Positions 5,293 to 16,834 of a stretch of 45,049 nucleotides of DNA are shown here, in pieces; positions within the stretch are counted from its first letter, which is position 1, and the number at the start of each line of letters is the position of its first letter. The notes below the pieces were generated by a model that made no database searches, had not been told where the DNA came from, and saw only the letters and a program-made list of their open reading frames with translations. The DNA lies in contig CALVXN010000004.1 in the NCBI GenBank assembly GCA_944371315.1, forward strand, positions 1 through 45,049. Reading direction: 5' to 3'. The stretch is from an uncultured Bacilli bacterium (GTDB lineage Bacteria; Bacillota_I; Bacilli_A; RF39; UBA660). A program made the translations under genes and the position numbers.

Positions 5293-5320
5293 TTGACCAT
5301 ATCTTGCATATATTTAATTA
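5293..5320 (+). promoter_or_regulatory. Promoter-like or operator motif, copy 2, upstream of cotE
   Basis: TTGACC-N16-TAATTA. It also contains CATATATT (5307-5314), which resembles the sigma-E -10 consensus CATACAHT. Confidence 0.3.
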
Positions 5321-5334
5321 GGAAGGTGATTTAC

Positions 5335-5871
5335 GTGTCTAGTTATAAAGAAATAGTTACAAAAGCAGTGATTGGAAAAGCTAAAAAAACAAGTAGTAAT
5401 AAATTTTCTTTAACACCAGAAGAGCTACCAAATACTGTTTTAGGTTGCTGGGTGATTAATCATAAATTTAATGGTAGCAAGAATGCTAAGGGGAGTGTTT
5501 TAGTTAATGGATCATTTGATGTAAACGTTTGGTATTCTTATGACTCTGATAAAAAGACTGCTGTAACAACACAAAATTTTACTTATAGTGATGTTATGAA
5601 TGTTCCTCTTAAAGAAGATCATAATATGCAAGATGCATCAGAAATAATTGTTAGGTGTTTAAAACAACCAACAGTTTCTAATGTTCAAATAGATAATAAT
5701 ATCGTAAGTTTAGATGTTGCAAAAGAAATGGGTGTAGAAATTGTTGGAGATACTAAAGTGAAAGTTAGTGTAGAAGATGATGAAGATGACTACGAAGAAA
5801 TATTTGATGAACAAGAACTTGATGAAATTGAAGATGTAAATGAAAATTACTTAAATGAAGCATCTGAATGA
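5335..5871 (+). CDS. cotE: Spore coat morphogenetic protein CotE homologue
   Basis: From GTG 5335 (RBS GGAAGGTGA) the protein reads SSYKEIVTKAV...LGCWVINHKF...DVNVWYSY...IVGDTKVKV and ends in an acidic DE-rich tail. This matches my recollection of B. subtilis CotE (YREIITKAV, GGWIINHKY, INVWYSY, acidic C-terminus). Confidence 0.65.
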   Translation: MSSYKEIVTKAVIGKAKKTSSNKFSLTPEELPNTVLGCWVINHKFNGSKNAKGSVLVNGSFDVNVWYSYDSDKKTAVTTQNFTYSDVMNVPLKEDHNMQDASEIIVRCLKQPTVSNVQIDNNIVSLDVAKEMGVEIVGDTKVKVSVEDDEDDYEEIFDEQELDEIEDVNENYLNEASE

Positions 5872-5884
5872 TGCTTTTTTTAAT
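5858..5884 (+). terminator. Rho-independent terminator after cotE
   Basis: AAGCATC (5858-5864) pairs with GATGCTT (5870-5876), followed by a T-run. Confidence 0.6.
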
Positions 5885-5914
5885 AAAAATCAAATAAGGG
5901 TCAACATAAATTAG

Positions 5915-5943
5915 TTGACATACTAAATTTAATATAGTAATAT
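5915..5943 (+). promoter_or_regulatory. Sigma-A promoter of rpsP-khpA
   Basis: TTGACA (5915-5920), 17-nt spacer, TAATAT (5938-5943). A GTCAAC-N8-GTTGAC inverted repeat overlaps the -35. Confidence 0.6.
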
Positions 5944-5968
5944 GTTTATAGGAAGTGAGGAGAGAAAA

Positions 5969-6247
5969 ATGGCTGTAAAGTTAAGATTAAAAAGAATGGG
6001 TGCTAAACAAAAACCTTTTTATCGTATAGTTGCTGCTGATTCAAGAAGTCCAAGAGATGGAAGATTTATTGAAACTGTTGGAACTTATAATCCAATTGCA
6101 AAACCAGCAGAAATAAAAATTAACAAAGAAGTTGCTTTAAAATGGTTAAATAATGGTGCACAACCAACAGATACAGTAAAAGCAATATTTAAAAACGAAG
6201 GTATAATGAAAGAATTTGCTGATTCAAAAGTAAAAAAAGGTAACTAA
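5969..6247 (+). CDS. rpsP: 30S ribosomal protein S16
   Basis: [35 protein letters not shown] is the canonical S16 N-terminus. GAGGAG RBS upstream. Confidence 0.95.
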
Positions 6248-6249
6248 AT

Positions 6250-6495
6250 ATGGATGTAGTAGAATATACAGAATTTTTAGTTAAAGAATTAGTAAAAGAT
6301 CCTGAATCTATTAAAGTAGAATGCTTTGAATCTGATGAAGATACAAAAATAATTGAAATAATAGTTTCTGAAAATGATATGAAAAATATCATAGGAAAAA
6401 ACGGAAAAAATGCATCAGCATTAAGAACAATAATTCAAGCCTTTGCTTATGTAAAAGGAATGAAAAAATTAAAAATTAACATCGATTCATATTAA
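6250..6495 (+). CDS. khpA: KH-domain RNA-binding protein (KhpA/YlqC, UPF0109)
   Basis: 81 aa with the GxxG KH motif IIGKNGKN. It sits in the conserved position immediately after rpsP. Confidence 0.85.
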   Translation: MDVVEYTEFLVKELVKDPESIKVECFESDEDTKIIEIIVSENDMKNIIGKNGKNASALRTIIQAFAYVKGMKKLKINIDSY

Positions 6496-6520
6496 ATGCT
6501 TAAAAGCATTTTTTATTTTG
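6494..6520 (+). terminator. Rho-independent terminator after khpA
   Basis: AAATGCTT / AAGCATTT hairpin followed by TTTTATTTT. Confidence 0.55.
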
Positions 6521-6540
6521 CCCAAAAGTAAAGTTTAATA

Positions 6541-6569
6541 TTTAAAAAGATTTCTTATTGTGTTAAAAT
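6541..6569 (+). promoter_or_regulatory. Extended -10 promoter for the repeat-protein/sigma operon
   Basis: TTTAAA (6541-6546), 17-nt spacer, TG-T-TAAAAT (6561-6569). Confidence 0.4.
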
Positions 6570-6604
6570 AATAACCATTGACTTATTATGAAAGGAATAT
6601 AAAA

Positions 6605-9600
6605 ATGGAACAAATATTTTGGGATAACTTCAAAAATACAGATAAATTATTAATTTTAGATTATGTAGGTAGACTGCCACTGATATACCAAAAAGCATTA
6701 CAAGATTGCTATGGTGAAGATTACAATGAATTATTAAAAAGGGGAGTTAAACTTACTGATGCCAAAAAAGCTATAAAAAAAATTAATTATTTAATTAACA
6801 ATCCTAATTATTATGTGCGTGCAACAAATTATAATCCAGCTAAAAATTTAAATGGAGAAATAAAGGTATTTAGTGGTAAACAAAAAAAAGTTTATTTAAA
6901 AGAAAAATTAAACTGTGATGAAAACACTATAAAAAGAATATCGATTATTTTCAGATTAAATCCAGAATTTAAAATTTTATATAAATATTTCGGTATAAAT
7001 TTAGACGAAAGTATTGACGAATTTGAATTATCAAGAGAAGATTATGAAACATTAAAAAAACTTTATAAGAATCTTAATGATTTTATAAGTAATAAATCAA
7101 TTTTAATAAGAAACATTTTAGGTTTAACATATAGTGAATTTGTATCTTATTTTGAAAAAGAATTAACGATAAATCCCAAGTTAAAAAAAATAAAACTGCT
7201 ATGTAAAAAGAACATAATTACTGAGCCTATAAACTTATTGGATATAGATGATAAAACATTTTTAAGTATAATTAAATGTATTTATTGTTTAAAACCAAAT
7301 ATATTAGTGAATCAAATACTTGCAAATAATAAATTTAATATTACATTACAAGAGTTCTTAGATGCAAATGAAAAAGAAATGGATTTTATATTAGAAAAAA
7401 ATAAAAATACTGATGTAGGTAACACTTTAAAAAATTTATGGCAAGACGATTACACAAAATTATGTATTGATAAAAATAATGATTCTATAAACGAATTAGT
7501 AACAATATTAAATGTTTTAATTAATGATTTATTTTCATATAGATATTTAATTAAAGTTAAAACATTACAAGAAATATTGGAAGCAACAGAAGAAGAAATA
7601 GATTTTTTAAAAAATAATTTATCAAAAGAAACATCTTCATATAAAATTATTTCAAAAGTATTTGGAAGTAACTTTAGAGGAACAAATGAGTTGAGATATA
7701 TGTTGCATGGCAAAGATAATGAAGCATATCATAATGCATTATTAAATTTGAAATTAAAACTAAGTAATTATAGAAATGGAAAATCTAGAAAATTTAAAAC
7801 ATTACAAGAATTATTAGGGGCATCAGAAGAAGAAATAGATTTTTTAAAAAAATATATTAATGATAATTATGAAAAATTTGCTATTATTATTAAAGTCTTT
7901 GGGAAAGAATTAAATGGGATAAATGAATTTTATAAATATTTAAGCGCCGAAGAAAAAGTAGCATATTCTGAAAAAATTCATATTTTAAGAATAAATTTAC
8001 AAAAGTTTAGAACAGGAAAATTACATGAATATAAAAAATTAAAAGATATATTAAATGTATCAGAAGAAGAAATAGAACACATAAAAAAATACTATCCTAA
8101 AACAACAAAAGGCTATCAAATTTTATTAAAAGTATTTGGAGAAAATTTGGATAATGATGACTCATTATATTGTAATTTATTAGAAAAAGAAAAAAATTTA
8201 TATCGATATACATTGCAAGCTTTAAATAGGTTTTTAAAAGATGGCATTAAAAAATATAAAACTTTACAAGAAATACTTGAAGCAACAGAAGAAGAAATGG
8301 AATTTTTAAAACAAAAATATCCTAAAAATACAAAAAATTATATTTTGCTTATAAAAGTATTTGGAAATAATTTTGAAAATTCAAATTATAATTATGACAA
8401 ACTAAATGGGGACGAAAAGAAAAAATACAGAAGTGCTTTAAAATCAATAAGGAAATTTTTAGAAAAACATAGAAAAAATTTAATAAAAAATGGTAAAACA
8501 TTAGCCGAAATAATAAAAATATCACCAGAAGAAATTGAATATATAAAACAACAATATCCTAAAAATACAAAAAACTATAAAATTATAGTTAAGGTATTTG
8601 GCATAGAATTAAAGGACACAAATGAAAAATTAAATTGTTTAACCAACGAAGAAAGAAAAACCTACTATAACGCTCTAAATTGCTTAAAAAGATTTATTAA
8701 AAGAAGTGAAACAAAGTGTAAACCTAAAACTTTACAAGAGTTATTAAAAGCAACAGAAAAAGAAATAGATTTTTTAAATAAAAAAATATCTAAAAAAACA
8801 AAGACTTATACTATATTATCAAAAGTATTTGGTAATGATTTTAAAAAAACAAATAAATGTTATGATAGTTTAACAACACTAGAAAAAAGAACTTTTTCAC
8901 AGACAATAATAAGATTAAAAAGCCTTTTAGAAAAATACAGAGAAACAAAGAAATTTGATTTTAAAACACTTTCCCAAATATTAGGCGCGACAAAAGAAGA
9001 AATAGAATTTTTGATGGATGAAGCAGATAAAAGTTCAAAAATTTACAAAGTGATTTTAAAAGTATTTGGAGAGGATTTTGAAGGAACTAACGAAAAGAAG
9101 TTTTTATTAAATAATGAAGAAAAAAAGACATATAATAATGCAATATCATCATTAAAAGCTAGATTAAAAAATTATAGGAAAAATAAAAATATTAAATATA
9201 AAACTTTACAAGAAATACTTGAAGCAACAGAAGAAGAAATAGACTTTTTAAGTGAAATTACTCCTAAAAAAACTAAAAATTATGTTGTTCTTGTTAAAGT
9301 TTTTGGAGAAAGTTTTAAAGGAACAAATGAACTATATGAACAACTAGCTGATGAAGAGAAGGTAACTTATTTTGCAGCAATAAAATCATTATCAGTAAGG
9401 CTAAAAAAATATCGTGACAATGGAAAAGATTATAAAACCTTGCAAGAAATACTAAATGCAACAGATGAAGAAATGAATTATTTAAGTAAAATTTACCCTC
9501 AAAATACAAGAAGTTATCAATTTTTGGTAAGTATGTTTGGAATAGATTTTAGAAATATAGGAAATTTGAGTAAATTATCTAGTGAAGCAAATATGTTGTT

Positions 9601-10012
9601 AAATGATACGATAGCAATATTACAAACATATTTATGTATGCAAAGAGAAAATACGAAAGATGGAAATTTACAACAAATCGAAACAGAAGGCCCTGTTGAA
9701 ATTTTAACAAGTAAAGAATATACAACGGTGGAAACACCATTTAAACATCCATTTTTTAAAGAATTTTTAATATTACTACCTATTGAATATCAATATATTA
9801 CAGCATTAAGATTAGGTTTAGTATATGATGGAAAAATTCATTCCATTGAAGAATTAGCGGAAATATTTAATATTGATATTGAAACTGCAAGAGAAAGATG
9901 TTCAAAAGGAATAAACATATTTATATTAATAATTGAAAGATATAAAGAATTGTATAATCAAAACGTCCCAAATATTGATGCACTAATAGAAAACATAAAA
10001 TTAGTTTTATAG
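6605..10012 (+). CDS. Giant repeat protein (1135 aa) with no sigma domain: FWDNF cap, about 12-13 copies of the ~78-aa helical repeat, and a C-terminal sigma4/YlxM-like HTH
   Basis: Uninterrupted ORF. ATG 6605 is preceded by a GAAAGGA RBS. The track TTG start at 6578 would lie at the predicted transcription start. Repeats and the C-terminal domain are paralogous to the ORFs at 10025 and 14406. Confidence 0.85.
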   Translation: MEQIFWDNFKNTDKLLILDYVGRLPLIYQKALQDCYGEDYNELLKRGVKLTDAKKAIKKINYLINNPNYYVRATNYNPAKNLNGEIKVFSGKQKKVYLKEKLNCDENTIKRISIIFRLNPEFKILYKYFGINLDESIDEFELSREDYETLKKLYKNLNDFISNKSILIRNILGLTYSEFVSYFEKELTINPKLKKIKLLCKKNIITEPINLLDIDDKTFLSIIKCIYCLKPNILVNQILANNKFNITLQEFLDANEKEMDFILEKNKNTDVGNTLKNLWQDDYTKLCIDKNNDSINELVTILNVLINDLFSYRYLIKVKTLQEILEATEEEIDFLKNNLSKETSSYKIISKVFGSNFRGTNELRYMLHGKDNEAYHNALLNLKLKLSNYRNGKSRKFKTLQELLGASEEEIDFLKKYINDNYEKFAIIIKVFGKELNGINEFYKYLSAEEKVAYSEKIHILRINLQKFRTGKLHEYKKLKDILNVSEEEIEHIKKYYPKTTKGYQILLKVFGENLDNDDSLYCNLLEKEKNLYRYTLQALNRFLKDGIKKYKTLQEILEATEEEMEFLKQKYPKNTKNYILLIKVFGNNFENSNYNYDKLNGDEKKKYRSALKSIRKFLEKHRKNLIKNGKTLAEIIKISPEEIEYIKQQYPKNTKNYKIIVKVFGIELKDTNEKLNCLTNEERKTYYNALNCLKRFIKRSETKCKPKTLQELLKATEKEIDFLNKKISKKTKTYTILSKVFGNDFKKTNKCYDSLTTLEKRTFSQTIIRLKSLLEKYRETKKFDFKTLSQILGATKEEIEFLMDEADKSSKIYKVILKVFGEDFEGTNEKKFLLNNEEKKTYNNAISSLKARLKNYRKNKNIKYKTLQEILEATEEEIDFLSEITPKKTKNYVVLVKVFGESFKGTNELYEQLADEEKVTYFAAIKSLSVRLKKYRDNGKDYKTLQEILNATDEEMNYLSKIYPQNTRSYQFLVSMFGIDFRNIGNLSKLSSEANMLLNDTIAILQTYLCMQRENTKDGNLQQIETEGPVEILTSKEYTTVETPFKHPFFKEFLILLPIEYQYITALRLGLVYDGKIHSIEELAEIFNIDIETARERCSKGINIFILIIERYKELYNQNVPNIDALIENIKLVL
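7559..9667 (+). repeat. Nine well-conserved in-frame tandem coding repeats (mean 78.1 aa, about 234 nt)
   Basis: Anchors [18 protein letters not shown]...YxILxKVFGxxFxGTN...LxxEEKxxYxxAIxxLKxxLKxYR recur at about 7559, 7796, 8036, 8259, 8497, 8727, 8966, 9201 and 9436. Three or four degenerate copies lie upstream (about 6890-7558). Confidence 0.9.
8252..8298 (+). repeat. 47-nt exact direct repeat (partner at 9194-9240)
   Basis: AAATATAAAACTTTACAAGAAATACTTGAAGCAACAGAAGAAGAAAT occurs twice, 942 nt (314 codons) apart and in frame. Confidence 0.9.
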
Positions 10013-10024
10013 AAAGGAGGATAA

Positions 10025-13000
10025 ATGAAAAATAGTATTTTATTATATCAGCTTATGCAAGAATATGGTTTTTATAATAAATCAAGTGAATTTTATATTG
10101 AAATTATAAAAAAATATGAAATAAATGGCGAAGTTAATAGACAAGACATAATAAAAATTAGAGAAAGTATATTAAAAAAAATAAAATGGGATATAAAAAA
10201 TTTAAATATTGATTGGCTGATAAATTTGTTCTTAAAAGTTAAAACATTAAGCGATTTATCAAAGCTATTAAATTTATTAAATAAATATACTATAGTTTTA
10301 GATTTTAGTTTAATTGAAAGTTTAATAAATAATAATTCGCAAGTTGATGCTTTAATATTTAGTTTTTTAAAAAAAGGAAAAAATATAACAATTTCATATA
10401 TAGATAGAATTAGTGATAATGAGTTAGTAACTGAACTTTTAATTGCCTATGCAACTATAAAAAATATCTTAATAAATGAATCAGAAAGAGAAGCAAACGA
10501 ATATTATGAAAATGCCCCCCAAAATTTTAAAATTGATGATTCAATAGGCATGTATTTAAAAGAAATAGGTAGTATACCATTATTATCAAAAGAAGAAGAA
10601 CTTGAATTGTTTAAAAAGATAGAAATGGGTAGTAAACAAGCAAAAGATAGAGTAATTGAAGCAAATTTACGTCTAGCAGCTTCTATTGCCAAAAAATATT
10701 TGAACAAAGGTTTAGGGCTACAAGACCTTATTCAAGAAGGAAATATAGGGATTATGAAGGCAGTAGAAAGGTTTGATTATAAGAAGGGATACAAATTTTC
10801 TACTTATGCTACCTGGTGGATTAGACAAACTATTACAAGGGCAATAAGTGAACAATCTAGACCCATTAGAGTGCCAGTTTATATGGATGAAAATATAAAA
10901 AATTTACATATAGCGAAAAATAATTTATCAATTAAGCTAAATAGAGAACCAACTATTGAGGAAATTGCCGAAGTATTAAATATGACACCAGATAAAGTAT
11001 TAGAAATAATTAGATTTGACACAGAAACATCAACAGCATCATTAAATGCTACAGTTGGTGATGAAGATGATTCAGAGCTAGGGAATTTCATTGAAGATAC
11101 TTTTTTTGAATCTCCAACAAAAACTTTTGAACAAAAAGATTTACGTATTAGGTTAAATGAGATAATTAATGAATTAGATGAAAGAGAAAAATCAGTTATA
11201 ATGTATAGATTTGGTTTAATAGATGGAAAACCTTATACACTTGAAGAAATAGGTAGAATATTAAATGTTACAAGGGAAAGAATTAGACAAATTGAAAAAA
11301 AAGCTTTAAGAAAATTAGGTAACCCTGTAAGAGCTAAAAAAATAGAAGATTATTATGAATCTAATGATATTGATTATACAATAGCAAAAGGATTTTGGAA
11401 TAATTTCATACATTATACAAAAGATATTATATTTTTAATAATTGATAATGATCTTAAAAAAGATTTAAAAAGCGCATTGTATAAAGTTTTTGGAAAAGAT
11501 TTATCAAAAGTAAAAATTAAAAATTCAAGTGAAACAGCAAAAGCAATTGAAGCAATAGAAGCAATTAAAACAATTTTAAAAACAAAAGATAAAAGCCAGT
11601 ATGAAATAACTTTACAAGAATATTTAAAAGCAACCGATGAAGAATATGAAAATTTAAAAAAGATTATTATATGTTCTTCTTACTGTGAAATATTATCAGA
11701 ATTATTTGGTAGTAATTTTGATCAACCAAAATCAGGTATAATAGCATCGCCAAGTAATGAGGCAACTTATTATAATATTGCATTTTGTTATTTAAAAAAT
11801 TGTTTAAATAAACGATGCGAAGTTCTACCTGAATTTAGATTAGGAACGCTACAGGAGATACTTAATGCAAACAAAGAAGAAATAAAATATTTAAAAGATA
11901 GCGTATTAAGTAAAACGGCTAACCGTTCTATAATAATAAAAGTTTTTGGAAATAACTTAGATCAAATAAATTCAGGTTATTATGAATTAGAATATAGTGA
12001 AAAAAATAAATATTTTAAATCTATTTCGTATTTAAAAAAAGAATTAACTAATTACAGAAAATTAAATTCAAGTAATAATATAACTTTGCAAGAAATACTA
12101 AATGCAACTGATGAAGAAATGTTATTTATAAAATGTAAAATTATAAATGATTCTTATTTTCAAATAATATTAAGAGTTTTTGGAAATGAATTAAACCAAA
12201 CAAATAAAAGCTTTAATGAATTAAGCGAAGAAGAAAAAATAGAATATAATAAATGTATAAGAAGTTTAAAAGACAAAATACGAGGATTTAGAGTATTTAA
12301 CAATAATAGAAGAAATTTGCAAAAGTATTTAAACGCATCTGATGAAGAAATGGTTTATTTAAATCAAACGTATATAGCTTCAGCAAAATTAAAAAATATT
12401 ATCTATGGAATATATGGTGAAAATTTAAACGAATTTAACGTTTATTTTTACGCTAGCTTATCTGATAAAGAGTTATTTAATTATAGTTCATTTATAACAA
12501 ATTTGCAAAAAAAATTAGAAAAACATCGCCATGAGCAAAAAGATTGTAAAACTATTCAAGAACTTTTAGAACTATCAAATGAAGAATTAGAATTAATTAG
12601 ACTTTATTATATAAATAAATCAGATAGATACCAAATATTAATAGAAGTATTCGGAGAAAATTTAGACCAAACAAATAAAATAGTTTGTTCATTTAATAAT
12701 CATAAAAATCAAACCTATAATAACGCTTTAAATGATTTAAGAAAAACAATAAAAATGCACAGGTTAATAGTAGGGGTTGGAAAAGCTATTTTTGAAATTT
12801 TAAATATGTCAATTGACGAATTTAATTTGATTAAACAAAACTTTTCACAAAATTTTGCAAATTTTAATGTTTTAATAAAAGTATTTGGGGATAATTTTGA
12901 TAAAACTGATGAAAACTATCATAATTTATCAATTGAAGAAAAAGTAGAATATATTAAAGCATTAGAAGAGTTTACTAAGTGTTTGATATCTGTTAGAACA

Positions 13001-13630
13001 TACAAAACTAAACATCAAACATTACAAGAAATACTGGAAGCTACAGAAGAAGAAATAGCATTTATAAAAGATAATTATCCACAAAATACAAAAAATTATG
13101 ATATTTTAGTCAAAGTCTTTGGCATAGATTTCACAAATAATAATTATATTTTAACTGAATTAAATGATTTTGAGAAAGATCAATATTACCGAGCAATAGA
13201 TTGTTTAAGAAAATATTTAAAAAATTATAGGAAAGGTAAAAATAAATTACCTAAAAAAGAAGAGTTAAAATTACCAAATGATACTACTAAAATAGATAAA
13301 CAAGATGACATAGAATATTTAGATGCAATACCTGATATAAATTTAAATGAAATTAAAACACCTTTTACGCATCCATATTTTCAAGAATTTATTAATATTT
13401 TACCAGAAGAGTATCGTATTATAACTGCTAAAAGAATGGGATTAAGTGATGGTTGCATCCATTCTTTAACAAGCCTAGCAAAAGAATTTAAAATAAGTCC
13501 ACAAGAGGTATATACCAAATGCGAAAATGGCATAGCATTATTTATATTAATAGTTAAAACTTACCAAACCACATTTAATAAAGAATTACCAATTTTAGAT
13601 TTAGATATGTTATTAAAACGTCTTATATAA
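10025..13630 (+). CDS. Primary-like (RpoD/SigA-type) sigma-70 factor fused to a novel N-terminal domain, 7 helical repeats and a C-terminal HTH (1201 aa)
   Basis: aa 171-444 (10535-11356) carry regions 1.2-4.2: [81 protein letters not shown] and [39 protein letters not shown] sits 12 nt after the stop of the upstream ORF. Confidence 0.9.
11606..13246 (+). repeat. Seven in-frame ~78-aa tandem coding repeats of the same family
   Basis: Anchors xTLQE[IY]Lx A[TS][DE]EE occur at about 11606, 11846, 12081, 12313, 12550, 12787 and 13018. A 23-nt exact match TTGCAAGAAATACTAAATGCAAC is shared with the 6605 ORF (about 9438 and about 12087). Confidence 0.85.
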
Positions 13631-13633
13631 AAA

Positions 13634-14332
13634 TTAAATATTTTTGTTTTTAATAAATTCAGTGAGCATTTTAGTAAGTGCTCTTTTTTCAATTCTAGAA
13701 ACATAACTTCTAGATATTTTTAACTCTTTTGCTATTTCTTTTTGCGTCATTTCCTTAGTGTTAAATAATCCATATCTTTTAACAATAATTTCTTTTTCAC
13801 GATCATTTAAAAGTTTTAGATATTTATTTAATAAATTAATATTGTTTTTAATTTCAAGTTGATCAAATAAATCTTTATCCTTATCTTTTATTACATCTAT
13901 TAAACTTATTTCATTTCCATCTTTATCATAACCAATAGCATCATTTAAACTAACAGTAACATTAACATGTTTATTAGCTCTAAAATGCATTAATAATTCA
14001 TTTTGAATACATCTAGCAGCATAAGTAGTAATTTTTGTTTTTTTATCATTATTATATGTATCAATTCCTTTAATAAGACCAATAGTTCCAATACTTATTA
14101 AATCATCAGTATCAACATCTTTGGTATCAAACTTTTTAACTATATGTGCAACCAAACGTAAATTATGCTCAATAAGTTTATTGCGAGCATTTTTATCTCC
14201 ATTTAACATGTCATTTATACATTTTTCTTCTTCTATAGCATTAAGTGGTTCAGGAAAAACATTATTAGAATAACTTCCTGTAAAAAACAACATATCTTTA
14301 ATAATATTTAACAAATTAAATAACATAAACAC
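13634..14332 (-). CDS. sigK: Sporulation sigma factor K precursor (pro-sigma-K), uninterrupted
   Basis: LIEHNLRLVAHIVKKF, DLISIGTIGLIKGI, TYAARCIQNELLMH, VSLNDAIGYDKDGNEISLIDV and ISRSYVSRIEKRAL match B. subtilis SigK rather than SigE. The hydrophobic N-terminal pro-sequence ends ...FFTGS / YSNNVFPEPL. AGGGGTG RBS upstream. Confidence 0.9.
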   Translation of the reverse strand: MFMLFNLLNIIKDMLFFTGSYSNNVFPEPLNAIEEEKCINDMLNGDKNARNKLIEHNLRLVAHIVKKFDTKDVDTDDLISIGTIGLIKGIDTYNNDKKTKITTYAARCIQNELLMHFRANKHVNVTVSLNDAIGYDKDGNEISLIDVIKDKDKDLFDQLEIKNNINLLNKYLKLLNDREKEIIVKRYGLFNTKEMTQKEIAKELKISRSYVSRIEKRALTKMLTEFIKNKNI

Positions 14333-14405: not shown

Positions 14406-16733
14406 ATGGATATAAGTGTGATTGTAGAAAAATTAAGTGAAGAATTTTCTTTTTACAATAAACCATACGAATATTATTTTAAGATATGTAATGAAATATT
14501 ATGTGATGATGCAAATTTAATGTATAAATTTTGTTATGAAAAAGTAGTTTTAGATATAAAAAACGATTGGAAAAGTTTAAAAATTGGTTGGTTTATTGCA
14601 ATATTTAAAGAAAATTTAAATGGAATGTTAGAAATATTAACTAAATTTGGATTAGTGATAGATAATACTAATTTTAAGCAAATTATAAAAAAATATCCTG
14701 ATTTTGAAAATACTTTATGTGATTTAGTAGAAAACGATGCTTATTTAGATGAAAATGAAACATTAAAAAAACTAATTAAATTATACTTAAGTTATACAGA
14801 AAGCAAAATGAAAAATAAACAAGATAAGGATATATTATTGTGGGAAGAACAGTTAGAAATATTTAAGATTTTAAAAGAATTAAGTAAAGAACCAGAAAAA
14901 AATAAAACTTCCATAGCTTATTATTATGATTTACTAGTAGAGCAATATAAAAATTTTGTTCGATCCCTAATACCAAAATATGAACAAGAAAAAGTAGAAT
15001 ATGATGATTTAGTTCAAGAAGGATTCATTGGATTAATTAATGCAATTAGAAATTTTGATTATACAAAGAGTTATAAATTTTCATCATATGCTTATGTTGT
15101 TATAAAAAACGCTATTAGGAAATACATAAATAAAAACATTAGATCAATAAGAATTCCTGATTCAATGTTAAACGATTATTTTAGAATAATATATACTCAA
15201 AGAGATTATTATATGTTAAATGGAAAAGAAGCAAGCGAAGAAAAACTATCAGAAATGTTATGTATGTCAATAGAAAAAATTAGAAATGTTTTAATGTGCT
15301 GTGAAGATACAATATCATTATATGATTCTTTAGGTAGGGGACCAGAAGAAGCAGAATACACTTTATTGTGTGCAATAAAAAATGAATCGTCCCCATTACC
15401 AGATGAAATATATGAAAGAAAACAAATAAATTTGATGATAGAAGAATTGTTTAGTGTTTTAACGGACATTCAAAGAAAAGTAATTGAACAATATTTTGGA
15501 TTTTATAATCAAAAACCTAAATCAATTCAAAATATAGCAGATGAACTTGGTTGTTCCAGAGAAAATATAGATCAAATAAGAAGTAATGCATTAAAACGAA
15601 TGAGAAAACACTTAGCTGATAAAAAGGATAATGATTTAAATACCTTTAGTAAATTTTCGTTAAATACAAATTATTTTTGGTATAACTTTATAGGTTTTAA
15701 AAAGTCTGAAGTATTAGAAGCTATAAACGAACTTGTAAATGAAGAAAATTTAAGTTATTTAGAACAAAAATCCTTAATAGATAGATTTGGTAAAAAATAT
15801 AATTTATTAAATAAAGTAGATGAAGAAACAATAAAAGTTGTTAGTGTTGCTATAGAAAAGATAAAAGAAAAACTTCTTGAAATACGAAAACGACAATCAA
15901 TGTTAAAAACCAAGATTGAAATAGGCAGTTTAATGGATATTTTAGATGCAACGATTGATGAAATAAAATATCTTAGATCAACTAGAAAAAAAGATAGTAA
16001 AAGCATAAATTTACTTACTAGATTATTTAATGATGATTTTTTAAGAGAAGGATTAATACCAGTTTATTTAAGTAAAACTGAATTAAGAACATATTATTCT
16101 GCTATAAGTGCATTAAGAGAATCATTAAAACTTTATAGAAAAAAAGAAAAAAATAAAAAGTATTACTTTGGCTTAACACTAAAACAAATATTAAATATAA
16201 CGGGTGAAGAAATTGAATTTTTAAAAAGGACGATTAATCCTAAATCTGCTTATTATTCAGTATTAACTAAATGCTTTGGAACTTCATTAGAAGAAGAAAA
16301 TAAAAATGAAAAATTAGATGAAAAAGAATTAAAATTATTAAAAAATGCTATAAACACAATGGAAGTGCTAATTTTTTATTATAGAGAGGAAGAAACTAAA
16401 AGACTATTAAAAATCTATAGCTATTTTAACATACCTGAAGAAACTAATGAAAAAGTAGTTACTCCATTTAGTAATCCAATGTTTAAATTATTTATTCAAT
16501 GTTTGCCTGATGAGCTACAAACTGTAACAGCGATGAGAATTGGGGCAGATAACGGTATTATTAAATCAATATTTGAAATTGCAATGTATTTAAATGAAGA
16601 TGAGGAAGAAGTAGCAAGAAAATGCAAAATAGGAATAGATTTATTTAAAACATTAGTAAGTGAATATAAAAATGAGTATGATAATGATTTTGAAGATTAT
16701 TTAATAGAAAGTAGAAAAAAATACGGTAAATAA
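14406..16733 (+). CDS. Divergent sigma-70 family factor fused to the same N-terminal domain, about 2 helical repeats and the C-terminal HTH (775 aa)
   Basis: Region 2: DLVQEGFIGLINAIRNFDYTKSYKFSSYAYVVIKNAIRKY. Region 4: LTDIQRKVIEQYFGF...SIQNIADELGCSRENIDQIRSNALKRMRKHL. These are followed by FWYNF (tgg at 15678), the repeats, then TPFSNPMF...LPDE...TAMRIG. GGGGGA RBS upstream. Confidence 0.85.
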   Translation: MDISVIVEKLSEEFSFYNKPYEYYFKICNEILCDDANLMYKFCYEKVVLDIKNDWKSLKIGWFIAIFKENLNGMLEILTKFGLVIDNTNFKQIIKKYPDFENTLCDLVENDAYLDENETLKKLIKLYLSYTESKMKNKQDKDILLWEEQLEIFKILKELSKEPEKNKTSIAYYYDLLVEQYKNFVRSLIPKYEQEKVEYDDLVQEGFIGLINAIRNFDYTKSYKFSSYAYVVIKNAIRKYINKNIRSIRIPDSMLNDYFRIIYTQRDYYMLNGKEASEEKLSEMLCMSIEKIRNVLMCCEDTISLYDSLGRGPEEAEYTLLCAIKNESSPLPDEIYERKQINLMIEELFSVLTDIQRKVIEQYFGFYNQKPKSIQNIADELGCSRENIDQIRSNALKRMRKHLADKKDNDLNTFSKFSLNTNYFWYNFIGFKKSEVLEAINELVNEENLSYLEQKSLIDRFGKKYNLLNKVDEETIKVVSVAIEKIKEKLLEIRKRQSMLKTKIEIGSLMDILDATIDEIKYLRSTRKKDSKSINLLTRLFNDDFLREGLIPVYLSKTELRTYYSAISALRESLKLYRKKEKNKKYYFGLTLKQILNITGEEIEFLKRTINPKSAYYSVLTKCFGTSLEEENKNEKLDEKELKLLKNAINTMEVLIFYYREEETKRLLKIYSYFNIPEETNEKVVTPFSNPMFKLFIQCLPDELQTVTAMRIGADNGIIKSIFEIAMYLNEDEEEVARKCKIGIDLFKTLVSEYKNEYDNDFEDYLIESRKKYGK
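15927..16400 (+). repeat. Two in-frame copies of the ~78-aa helical repeat
   Basis: SLMDILDATIDEIKYL...LTRLFNDDF...YYSAISALRESLKLYRK and LTLKQILNITGEEIEFLK...LTKCFGTSL...LKNAINTMEVL. Confidence 0.7.
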
Positions 16734-16834
16734 CATTAATTATGATATACTATTAAAGAATGGAGAAGAAAAATATGGTAAATAACATTAATTATGATAT
16801 ACTATTAAAGAATGGAGAAGAAAAATATGGTAAA
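16725..16834 (+). repeat. Perfect 52-nt tandem duplication (2.1 copies) spanning the stop of the 775-aa ORF and the RBS/start of polA
   Basis: 16725-16776 and 16777-16828 are identical (GGTAAATAACATTAATTATGATATACTATTAAAGAATGGAGAAGAAAAATAT). A third copy starts at 16829 (GGTAAA). Each copy carries TGATATACT (extended -10) and GGAG. Confidence 0.95.
16795..16803 (+). promoter_or_regulatory. Extended -10 element (TG-A-TATACT) proximal to polA, duplicated at 16743-16751
   Basis: TGATATACT at 16795-16803, with GGAG at 16813-16816 and ATG at 16827. Confidence 0.4.

Follow-up and report, generated by a model that had tools for sequence, protein, structure and literature searches.

R1135, a possible free-standing sigma factor tail encoded beside repeat-tailed RpoD-like sigma factors in an uncultured Bacilli bacterium

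What can a large protein be doing that carries the C-terminal part of two neighbouring sigma factors and nothing of the sigma factor itself? The question is raised by a stretch of 45,049 nucleotides (contig CALVXN010000004.1, assembly GCA_944371315.1; hereafter the window, ~22-25% G+C) from an uncultured low-GC gut Bacilli bacterium whose genome has about 23% G+C. Here, an open reading frame (ORF) with an ATG start at 6605..10012 (+ strand) encodes a sigma-less tail protein of 1135 amino acids (aa), which I call R1135, and downstream of it lie two sigma fusions, called SigA1201 and Sig775. I suggest, tentatively, that R1135 is a free-standing sigma tail, co-expressed with SigA1201 and acting in trans on RNA polymerase or on the tailed sigma paralogues, a reading that I consider possible although somewhat short of probable.

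Domain layout of R1135

SigA1201 (10025..13630, + strand; 1201 aa) is RpoD-like and contains regions 1.2, 2, 3 and 4 (aa 172-431), followed by a conserved segment that I call module 0, by 7-8 copies of a repeat and by a tail domain, as assigned with Pfam, NCBIfam and a hidden Markov model (HMM) built from the repeats of R1135. With the same models, Sig775 (14406..16733, + strand; 775 aa) shows regions 2-4 (aa 177-401), module 0, 2 repeats and the tail domain. A preliminary description of this DNA had stated that R1135 lacks sigma regions 2-4, and indeed neither Pfam nor NCBIfam detects any of regions 1.2-4 in it. Region 2 (PF04542, Sigma70_r2), which is matched in SigA1201 and Sig775 at E 2e-21 and 3e-18, is not found in R1135 by Pfam, by NCBIfam or by phmmer with the SigA1201 core, and lacking region 2, R1135 cannot be a sigma factor. 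In searches of the whole protein it belongs to no Pfam, NCBIfam, PADLOC or PHROGs family, the last of these returning only sub-threshold fragments.

The N-terminus of R1135 reads MEQIFWDNF, and the preliminary description had equated it with an FWxNF motif located 10-15 residues after region 4.2 in both fusions. The motif is FWDNF at residues 5-9 of R1135, FWNNF at 457-461 of SigA1201 and FWYNF at 424-428 of Sig775. As region 4 ends at 431 (Pfam) or 444-446 (NCBIfam) in SigA1201 and at 401 or 407-408 in Sig775, the motif does lie shortly past region 4, at a distance of 11-26 residues that depends on the model chosen and is not strictly 10-15. Pairwise similarity among the three proteins is weak around it. 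The correspondence itself was well founded: a leave-out profile of module 0, i.e. of the ~70 residues after region 4, aligned from 17 family members of other organisms, matches R1135 at aa 5-72 (44.6 bits), SigA1201 at 454-522 (30.5 bits) and Sig775 at 423-488 (31.1 bits), and this match is the only strong one in each protein. Module 0 of R1135 (6617..6820, + strand) shows the pattern FWxNF ... L-x(3)-Q-x(2)-L-x(3)-YG ... NPxYxxR in an alignment of 20 family members, and it is conserved after region 4 in about 40 sigma-fusion clusters. In profile comparisons (hhalign) module 0 resembles the repeat (probability 91%, E 1e-6), so that it is a diverged repeat unit itself, while its first half bears a faint likeness to region 4.1 (probability 50%, E 1.6e-4). 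The next 250 residues of R1135, including the segment around aa 88-170, are collinear in BLAST with the post-sigma linker of proteins from other species (P0090, P0035, P0017, P0030, P0060 and L4_931). Together, the module 0 match and the collinear linker make R1135 look like a typical fusion from which the sigma part has been removed exactly at the domain boundary.

At its other end (aa 1036-1135; 9710..10009, + strand) R1135 carries the motif TPFKHPFF and an acidic domain that resembles sigma region 4. This end domain of ~100 aa is common to R1135, SigA1201 and Sig775, with the invariant prefix TPF-x-x-P-x-F, which across the family takes the form TPFxHPxF. The tail HMM matches aa 1036-1133 in P0001, a 97%-identical orthologue, and the tail profile scores 146 bits on the ORF in the window. 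Compared with genuine region 4 by hhalign, the tail gives a probability of 96% (E 1.5e-9), even though a Pfam scan with the single R1135 tail sequence yields no significant match to PF04545. A model of four repeats plus tail returns only sigma factors in Foldseek, the cleanest local match being 1ku7_A, the sigma-A region 4 bound to -35 DNA (TM 0.67, rmsd 2.8 A, 68 columns); these matches of the larger model are best explained by the tail domain, not by the repeats.

The tail thus resembles region 4 (PF04545; 1ku7) in profile, in fold and in the retained L-P-x-E...R-x-G...G...S...A framework, and it differs from it in the added TPFxHPxF prefix, in charge and in the residues that would touch DNA. 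Aa 1019-1135 of R1135 have a net charge of -8, and across the family the median charge of the tail is -3.2 per 100 aa, against +5.6 for the genuine region 4 of the same proteins (p 3e-14). In place of the -35-contacting R-E-R-x-R-Q, which is not conserved, stand acidic or neutral stretches such as IETARE, EEDASE or EEEVLQ. From the acidic composition and the loss of these contact residues, it seems more likely that the tail domain binds protein than that it binds promoter DNA. The earlier statement that R1135 has the same C-terminal helix-turn-helix (HTH) as its neighbours therefore holds for the shared, region-4-like fold, whereas the DNA binding that an HTH brings to mind is unlikely.

Between the two ends lies the repeat array, which had been described as the largest of the three proteins, as it is: 9 canonical and about 4 degenerate units of 78 aa, or about 13 copies, against 7-8 in SigA1201 and 2 in Sig775. 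The nine canonical units (aa 316-1018; 7550..9658, + strand) score 98-114 bits each with the repeat HMM, are 31-54% identical to one another and have the consensus KTLQEILxATxEEIxFLK...TKxYxILxKVFGxxF...L...EK..Y..AI..L...L...R. Ahead of them stand ~3 degenerate units (aa 97-163, 164-246 and 247-318; 6893..7558, + strand), of which the HMM recognises the first at 97-163 (E 5e-10) and the third at 247-288 (E 7e-6), the middle one being assigned by eye only. Conservation in the repeat falls mostly on hydrophobic core positions, the surfaces being variable, and no tandem repeats at the DNA level or signs of recent homogenisation were found in the arrays. For a single unit, AlphaFold with an 18-row alignment predicts five helices, four short ones and a long one of about 24 residues, with a mean local confidence (pLDDT) of 95.3 and a global score (pTM) of 0.81. 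For four repeats plus tail, the mean pLDDT is 76 and the pTM 0.28, with confidence falling at each unit junction; individual units are thus predicted well, and their mutual arrangement is not.

No known counterpart of the unit came to light. Foldseek returns no match to its fold from the PDB or BFVD (best E 1.2 and 1.7, respectively), a sequence-profile search of the PDB gives nothing significant (best E 0.12), and no Pfam repeat family, such as TPR, HEAT or ankyrin, matches R1135. I considered whether the repeat could be a plain copy of region 4 and rejected this, as the repeat profile, compared by hhalign with region 4 or with the tail, reaches a probability of about 1%. As a hypothesis, the array could still be derived from region 4, the sole link being the likeness of module 0 to region 4.1 mentioned above.

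Conservation of the gene and turnover of its array

Is R1135 then a broken sigma gene? The preliminary description had named a sigma-coding remnant as the mark of a truncated pseudogene. No sigma remnant is present in the 109-nt spacer between khpA and R1135, nor is there a region-4 signal in any frame of the window beyond the three known sigma genes. Three strains, namely that of the window, L001 and L002, have the ORF intact, and other species possess sigma-less genes that begin at the same boundary. In a comparison of five genes at the locus between the window and strain L002, the ratio of nonsynonymous to synonymous substitution rates (dN/dS) is 0.34 for R1135, 0.25 for SigA1201, 0.17 for Sig775, 0.105 for polA and 0.08 for sigK. 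Within R1135, the first 318 residues give 0.24 and the repeats 0.6, a value based on no more than 22 substitutions. On these grounds R1135 is an intact and selectively maintained gene and not a broken sigma gene.

The array of R1135 tells a different story from its flanks. Between the window and L001, SigA1201 is 95% identical overall, its array included, Sig775 95% and polA 98%; the flanks of R1135 are 87-99% identical, whereas its array drops to 33-73% per 100 aa. Among the genes of the locus, such hypervariability of the array between strains is seen only in the sigma-less paralogue. Ten canonical units make up the L001 allele, and the initial four are copies of one unit type. Within one species there are at least two array alleles, which differ in the order and number of their units. 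When matched units of the two alleles are compared (window 7550-9424 and L001 761-4372), dS is about 0.5, against 0.06-0.07 in the flanks, and dN/dS is 0.44. The two alleles are thus deeply diverged and both under constraint, and show no burst of positive selection. The window and L002 share a near-identical array (dS 0.016) next to an N-terminal part at dS 0.12, and since the array is so much closer than the N-terminal part, array alleles may have been exchanged by recombination.

The tail, in turn, indicates the age of the gene. R1135 is 59-61% identical in its tail to P0017, P0033 and P0035, all from other species, and 45% to the tail of SigA1201. Because it is closer to the tails of other species than to that of its neighbour, R1135 represents an old lineage and not a recent local duplicate.

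Relatives, expression signals and gene order

A word-indexed search returned only the orthologue P0001, the strain variant P0002 and the neighbouring fusion. An exhaustive search of 1.84 billion representatives with the repeat profile yielded 88 proteins at E <= 0.001; 41 of these reach E <= 1e-10, and a few of the weak ones are spurious. When the matches are sorted into architectures with local profiles, about 40 clusters show the order sigma regions 2-4, repeats, tail, and repeats and tail without sigma are seen in about 18 proteins. The repeat is found almost only alongside sigma or region-4-like domains, in 3 to 12 units per protein. R1135 has all the marks of this undescribed family of sigma tails: module 0 (FWxxF ... 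YG/FG ... NPxY), tandem 78-aa repeats with a K-V-F-G core, and TPFxHPxF with an acidic region-4-like end. Genomes with relatives that carry a name are an uncultured Bacilli metagenome-assembled genome and Candidatus Onthocola stercoravium; no relatives were found in IMG/VR or in a scan of JGI metagenomes. A phage or defence origin was considered and rejected, since neither PADLOC nor PHROGs has a family for R1135 and IMG/VR returned no relatives, and the PADLOC MzaA matches of the neighbouring fusions cover only their sigma cores.

Sigma-less relatives begin at the same point as R1135. P0033 (L11_461) starts MRVKLFWEYF and has an in-frame TGA 18 nt upstream, a GGGAG ribosome-binding site (RBS) and an extended -10 element, TGTTATAAT; on contig L011, a gap of 28 nt separates a near-identical copy from the sigma fusion downstream of it, after which come a second fusion and polA. 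P0024 starts MNFFDYF and occupies the slot after khpA, as R1135 does in the window, the order on contig L007 being rpsP, khpA, P0024, sigK (- strand) and three sigma fusions. On L006, the sigma-less P0004 is followed after 50 nt by a protein that has region 4 only, repeats and two tails. Same-strand tandem pairs are thus separated by 12 nt in the window, 28 nt in L011 and 50 nt in L006. In P0055, from another organism, the repeats are fused N-terminally to a sigma factor, making it the fused counterpart of the gene pair R1135-SigA1201. The preliminary description had asked whether the sigma-less and the fused forms always occur together; the association turns out to be one-sided, as sigma-less genes with enough context stand near fusions, while several genomes have fusions and no sigma-less gene at this locus. 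The sigma-less form may have arisen by loss of the sigma part, or else the fusions by capture of an autonomous tail gene.

Several further architectures were seen in the family. L4_521 has a single repeat unit and no tail domain. On L003, which belongs to an uncultured Bacilli metagenome-assembled genome and whose two fusions lie at 5388-8801 and 9673-12219, the fusion of 1137 aa has an extra internal region-4-like domain in the middle of its tail (aa 644-710) and that of 848 aa appears to hold a second, internal tail-like segment, so that the tail architecture is modular. Two to three or more tandem RpoD-like tailed sigma paralogues with differing repeat numbers are present on L004 (75-6102), L007 (4257-13469) and L011 (2185-7082), and on L007 a membrane protein of 588 aa is encoded between the first and second fusion. 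A second group of proteins (P0013, P0036, P0038, P0066, P0045, P0075, P0085, P0088 and P0089) has up to 10 or more near-identical tandem units similar to module 0 (SIYDYF...KLYG..YD.LN...LT.EE), with another N-terminus and another HTH-like C-terminal end (LT..EK.YLQLKL...); these proteins may form a sister family to that of the R1135 repeat.

The start codon of R1135 deserves some care, as the longest reading of the ORF begins at TTG 6578 and adds 9 residues. However, this TTG has no RBS. I prefer ATG 6605, because AAAGGA (6591..6596, + strand) lies 8 nt upstream of it, because gene calls in two other strains begin at the same ATG, and because P0033 and P0024 start at the equivalent point. The RBS attributed to the gene at the outset is thereby borne out. 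The promoter-like element proposed with it does exist as sequence (6541..6569, + strand; TTTAAA-17 nt-TAAAAT with a TG one base 5' of the -10 hexamer, 9/12 matches in the promoter scan), but this AT-rich DNA holds no more matches of that kind (86 in the window) than shuffled sequence would (93.8 expected). Immediately 3' of the khpA stop, a terminator-like hairpin, AAAUGCU-UAAA-AGCAUUU with a U tract (6494..6519, + strand), folds at -8.3 kcal/mol (z -2.6 against shuffles), its G-C pairs being too few to pass the terminator scan. The whole spacer between khpA and R1135 (6496-6604, 109 nt) is identical to that of strain L001 at 108/109 positions, where several differences would be expected under neutrality at the dS of 0.07 of the adjoining coding flank.

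At the other end of the gene, the stop codon TAG (10010-10012) is followed by the 12-nt junction AAAGGAGGATAA (10013..10024, + strand), in which the SigA1201 RBS AAAGGAGG comes immediately after the stop, and then by the ATG of SigA1201 at 10025, just as first described. L001 and L002 keep this spacing. R1135 and SigA1201 are in frame with each other; a read-through fusion is nevertheless unlikely, as both TAG and TAA stand between them (TAG AAA GGA GGA TAA, 10010-10027). The terminator scan finds no site between R1135 and SigA1201, the next one on the + strand being at 13664, after SigA1201, and Rfam detects no RNA families anywhere in the window. From these signals a promoter of its own for R1135 and co-transcription with SigA1201, as the preliminary description had proposed, both seem plausible, and both gain support from the recurrence of the tandem arrangement with short gaps in L011 and L006.

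As for the wider neighbourhood, R1135 is preceded by an ABC transporter pair, a PGA_cap gene, HIT, a pyridoxal phosphate (PLP) enzyme, cotE (5293-5871), rpsP and khpA, and Sig775 is followed by polA and fpg. Between the two fusions, sigK (13634..14332, - strand) is convergent with SigA1201; it matches NF004471 (PRK05803.1, SigK subfamily) with 313.8 bits, well above the cut-off of 252. From the presence of cotE and sigK, the organism probably forms spores, while rpsP, khpA and polA are housekeeping genes. The block of ABC, PGA_cap, HIT, cotE, rpsP, khpA ... sigK ... polA is syntenic in the related metagenomic contigs L009, L010 and L012. In these three, genes for 302-309 aa follow khpA, which I considered as orthologues of R1135 and discarded, as they encode unrelated secreted proteins. 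Between the SigA1201 stop (ending at 13630) and that of sigK (ending at 13634 on the - strand) there are 3 nt, and the sole terminator-like hairpin past SigA1201 (13664-13683, + strand) sits within the sigK coding sequence. At 16701-16834, a 52-bp unit occurs in tandem (2.6 copies, 93% matches) and covers the last codons of Sig775 as well as the RBS and start of polA. An additional copy of the unit creates an 8-codon mini-ORF (MEKKNMVN) before polA; L002 has one copy fewer, leaving 26 nt between the Sig775 stop and the polA ATG instead of 78 nt.

The proposed role and its rivals

If R1135 is made together with SigA1201, it could act in trans as the free form of the tail, through its end domain, its array or both. 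The end domain might then bind the surface of RNA polymerase or of sigma that the fused tails bind, or it might bind the arrays of the fused tails, and R1135 would thereby modulate the use of the tailed sigma paralogues, possibly as the decoy, partner or scaffold that the preliminary description had envisaged. I infer both the binding partner and the effect on transcription. In a bolder form, which I consider rather improbable, this clade of uncultured low-GC gut Bacilli would have evolved a new layer of sigma control, in which RpoD-like sigmas bear region-4-derived arrays that end in a DNA-blind 'decoy' region 4, and a strain-hypervariable sigma-less tail competes in trans for the region-4 site on RNA polymerase or for the tails of the paralogues. 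It would then represent a new class of anti-sigma or sigma-partitioning factor.

Several observations weigh against a free-standing tail that works alongside the sigma fusions. Between the same strains in which the R1135 array is hypervariable, the fused arrays are 87-100% identical per 100 aa; such variability is unexpected if the array must match a conserved partner, and the difference from the conserved arrays of its neighbours argues against simple mimicry of those arrays. The tails of R1135 and SigA1201 share only the 45% identity given above, so that a common partner must tolerate their divergence. Tailed sigmas occur without a sigma-less gene at the locus in L003, L009, L010 and L012, and in L007 the sigma-less gene precedes the convergent sigK and not a sigma fusion, which means that coupling to a downstream sigma is not universal. 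Finally, R1135 is strongly basic, which would also suit the binding of nucleic acids.

This last point leads to an alternative that I regard as unlikely, namely that R1135 is an architectural protein whose lysine-rich long helices bind AT-rich DNA or RNA independently of RNA polymerase, the fused arrays tethering their sigmas to the nucleoid. The whole protein has a pI of 9.06 and a net charge of +31, seven of the nine canonical units are basic (+2 to +11), column charges show a positive character of the long helix's C-terminal half that is conserved from unit to unit, and every sigma-less array of 7 or more units carries a net positive charge, in a genome of about 23% G+C. However, array charge shows no difference between sigma-less and sigma-fused members (p 0.34), which leaves the idea that sigma-less arrays are systematically more basic unsupported, and many arrays are neutral or acidic, that of SigA1201 among them (-1.4 per 100 aa). 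Moreover, the model of the single unit matches no known DNA-binding fold, and the sole HTH-like domain is acidic and devoid of DNA-contact residues.

It is quite improbable that R1135 is a scaffold or structural protein of sporulation which happens to share domains with sigma tails, its array serving as a rod or spacer of variable length. Against this role stand the company that the repeat keeps, almost only sigma or region-4-like domains, and the lack of any signal peptide or hydrophobic segment in R1135. What speaks for this role is the position of cotE upstream and of sigK adjacent to the gene pair, in a synteny that holds across species, together with repeats that are conserved mostly in their hydrophobic core and variable on their surfaces, a copy number that ranges from 3 to 12 units and an inter-unit geometry that escapes confident prediction (pTM 0.28). 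The flanking rpsP, khpA and polA are, however, housekeeping genes, which makes the locus context weak.

That R1135 is a decaying, functionless gene left over from a sigma fusion after the loss of the 5' part, as might be gathered from its dN/dS, the highest of the five genes at the locus, from the variation of array content and copy number between strains and from its absence at the locus in some related genomes, is very improbable indeed and largely refuted by conservation, given a 3.4-kb ORF kept intact by three strains whose genome has 23% G+C, a start with RBS exactly at the domain boundary, no sigma remnant upstream, a dN/dS still at 0.44 between deeply diverged array alleles (dS about 0.5), and same-boundary sigma-less genes in other species, one of them at the rpsP-khpA position.

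To return to R1135 as a free-standing sigma tail, fused regulatory extensions are already an established idea for extracytoplasmic function (ECF) sigma factors, and what is new in R1135 is the repeat domain. ECF sigma factors with a fused C-terminal extension, e.g. ECF41, carry an additional domain past region 4, which reportedly regulates the sigma factor in cis (PMC3426412). The tailed sigmas of this locus resemble them in carrying an extra part after region 4, and a tail that acts in trans would parallel the pairing of fused extensions with separate anti-sigma factors. The differences are equally clear. While ECF sigmas have two domains (regions 2 and 4), the fusions described here are RpoD-like, with regions 1.2, 2, 3 and 4, and match best to RpoD models; while the ECF extension is a single known domain, the extension here joins an undescribed five-helix domain, in 2 to >10 copies, to a second region-4-like domain, with no Pfam family; and, unlike ECF extensions, it also exists free-standing as a separate conserved gene. 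R1135 itself has no sigma core. In the literature searched I found no description of tailed RpoD-like sigmas or of the R1135 repeat, and none turned up in Pfam, NCBIfam or the PDB.

Two other classes of regulators invite comparison. Rsd, FlgM, AsiA and the ASD-type anti-sigmas are separate sigma-binding proteins, which R1135 would resemble by analogy in its proposed role, having no function in promoter recognition, encoded beside sigma genes and acting through protein contacts. It is, however, 5 to 10 times larger than these and made of repeats that are also found within sigmas, and no anti-sigma domain or fold was detected in it by Pfam, NCBIfam, Foldseek or a PDB profile search. Large regulators of the LuxR/GerE type combine a long N-terminal helical array with a small C-terminal domain of the region-4/GerE class, and R1135 has the same layout of a long helical array followed by a small region-4-class end domain. 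In contrast to these regulators, R1135 lacks an ATPase or TPR module, its end domain is acidic, with DNA binding doubtful, and its array domain is new; a Pfam match to GerE (PF00196) is missing both when the tail is scanned by itself (E <= 1) and when the entire protein is (E <= 0.1).

R1135 indicates that the tail of these sigma factors is an autonomous unit, able to fold and kept by selection without the sigma factor, and it offers a natural experimental handle on that tail, which could be expressed alone to find its partners. The hypervariable array of the sigma-less form poses a question of its own, namely which selective force drives the turnover of arrays in a protein of the cytoplasm. 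Should the tail prove to bind RNA polymerase or the sigma paralogues, this would reveal how a lineage allocates its several tandem RpoD-like paralogues, and it would add to the transcription toolkit a new domain of ~78 residues, present in about 80 clusters among the 1.84 billion representatives.

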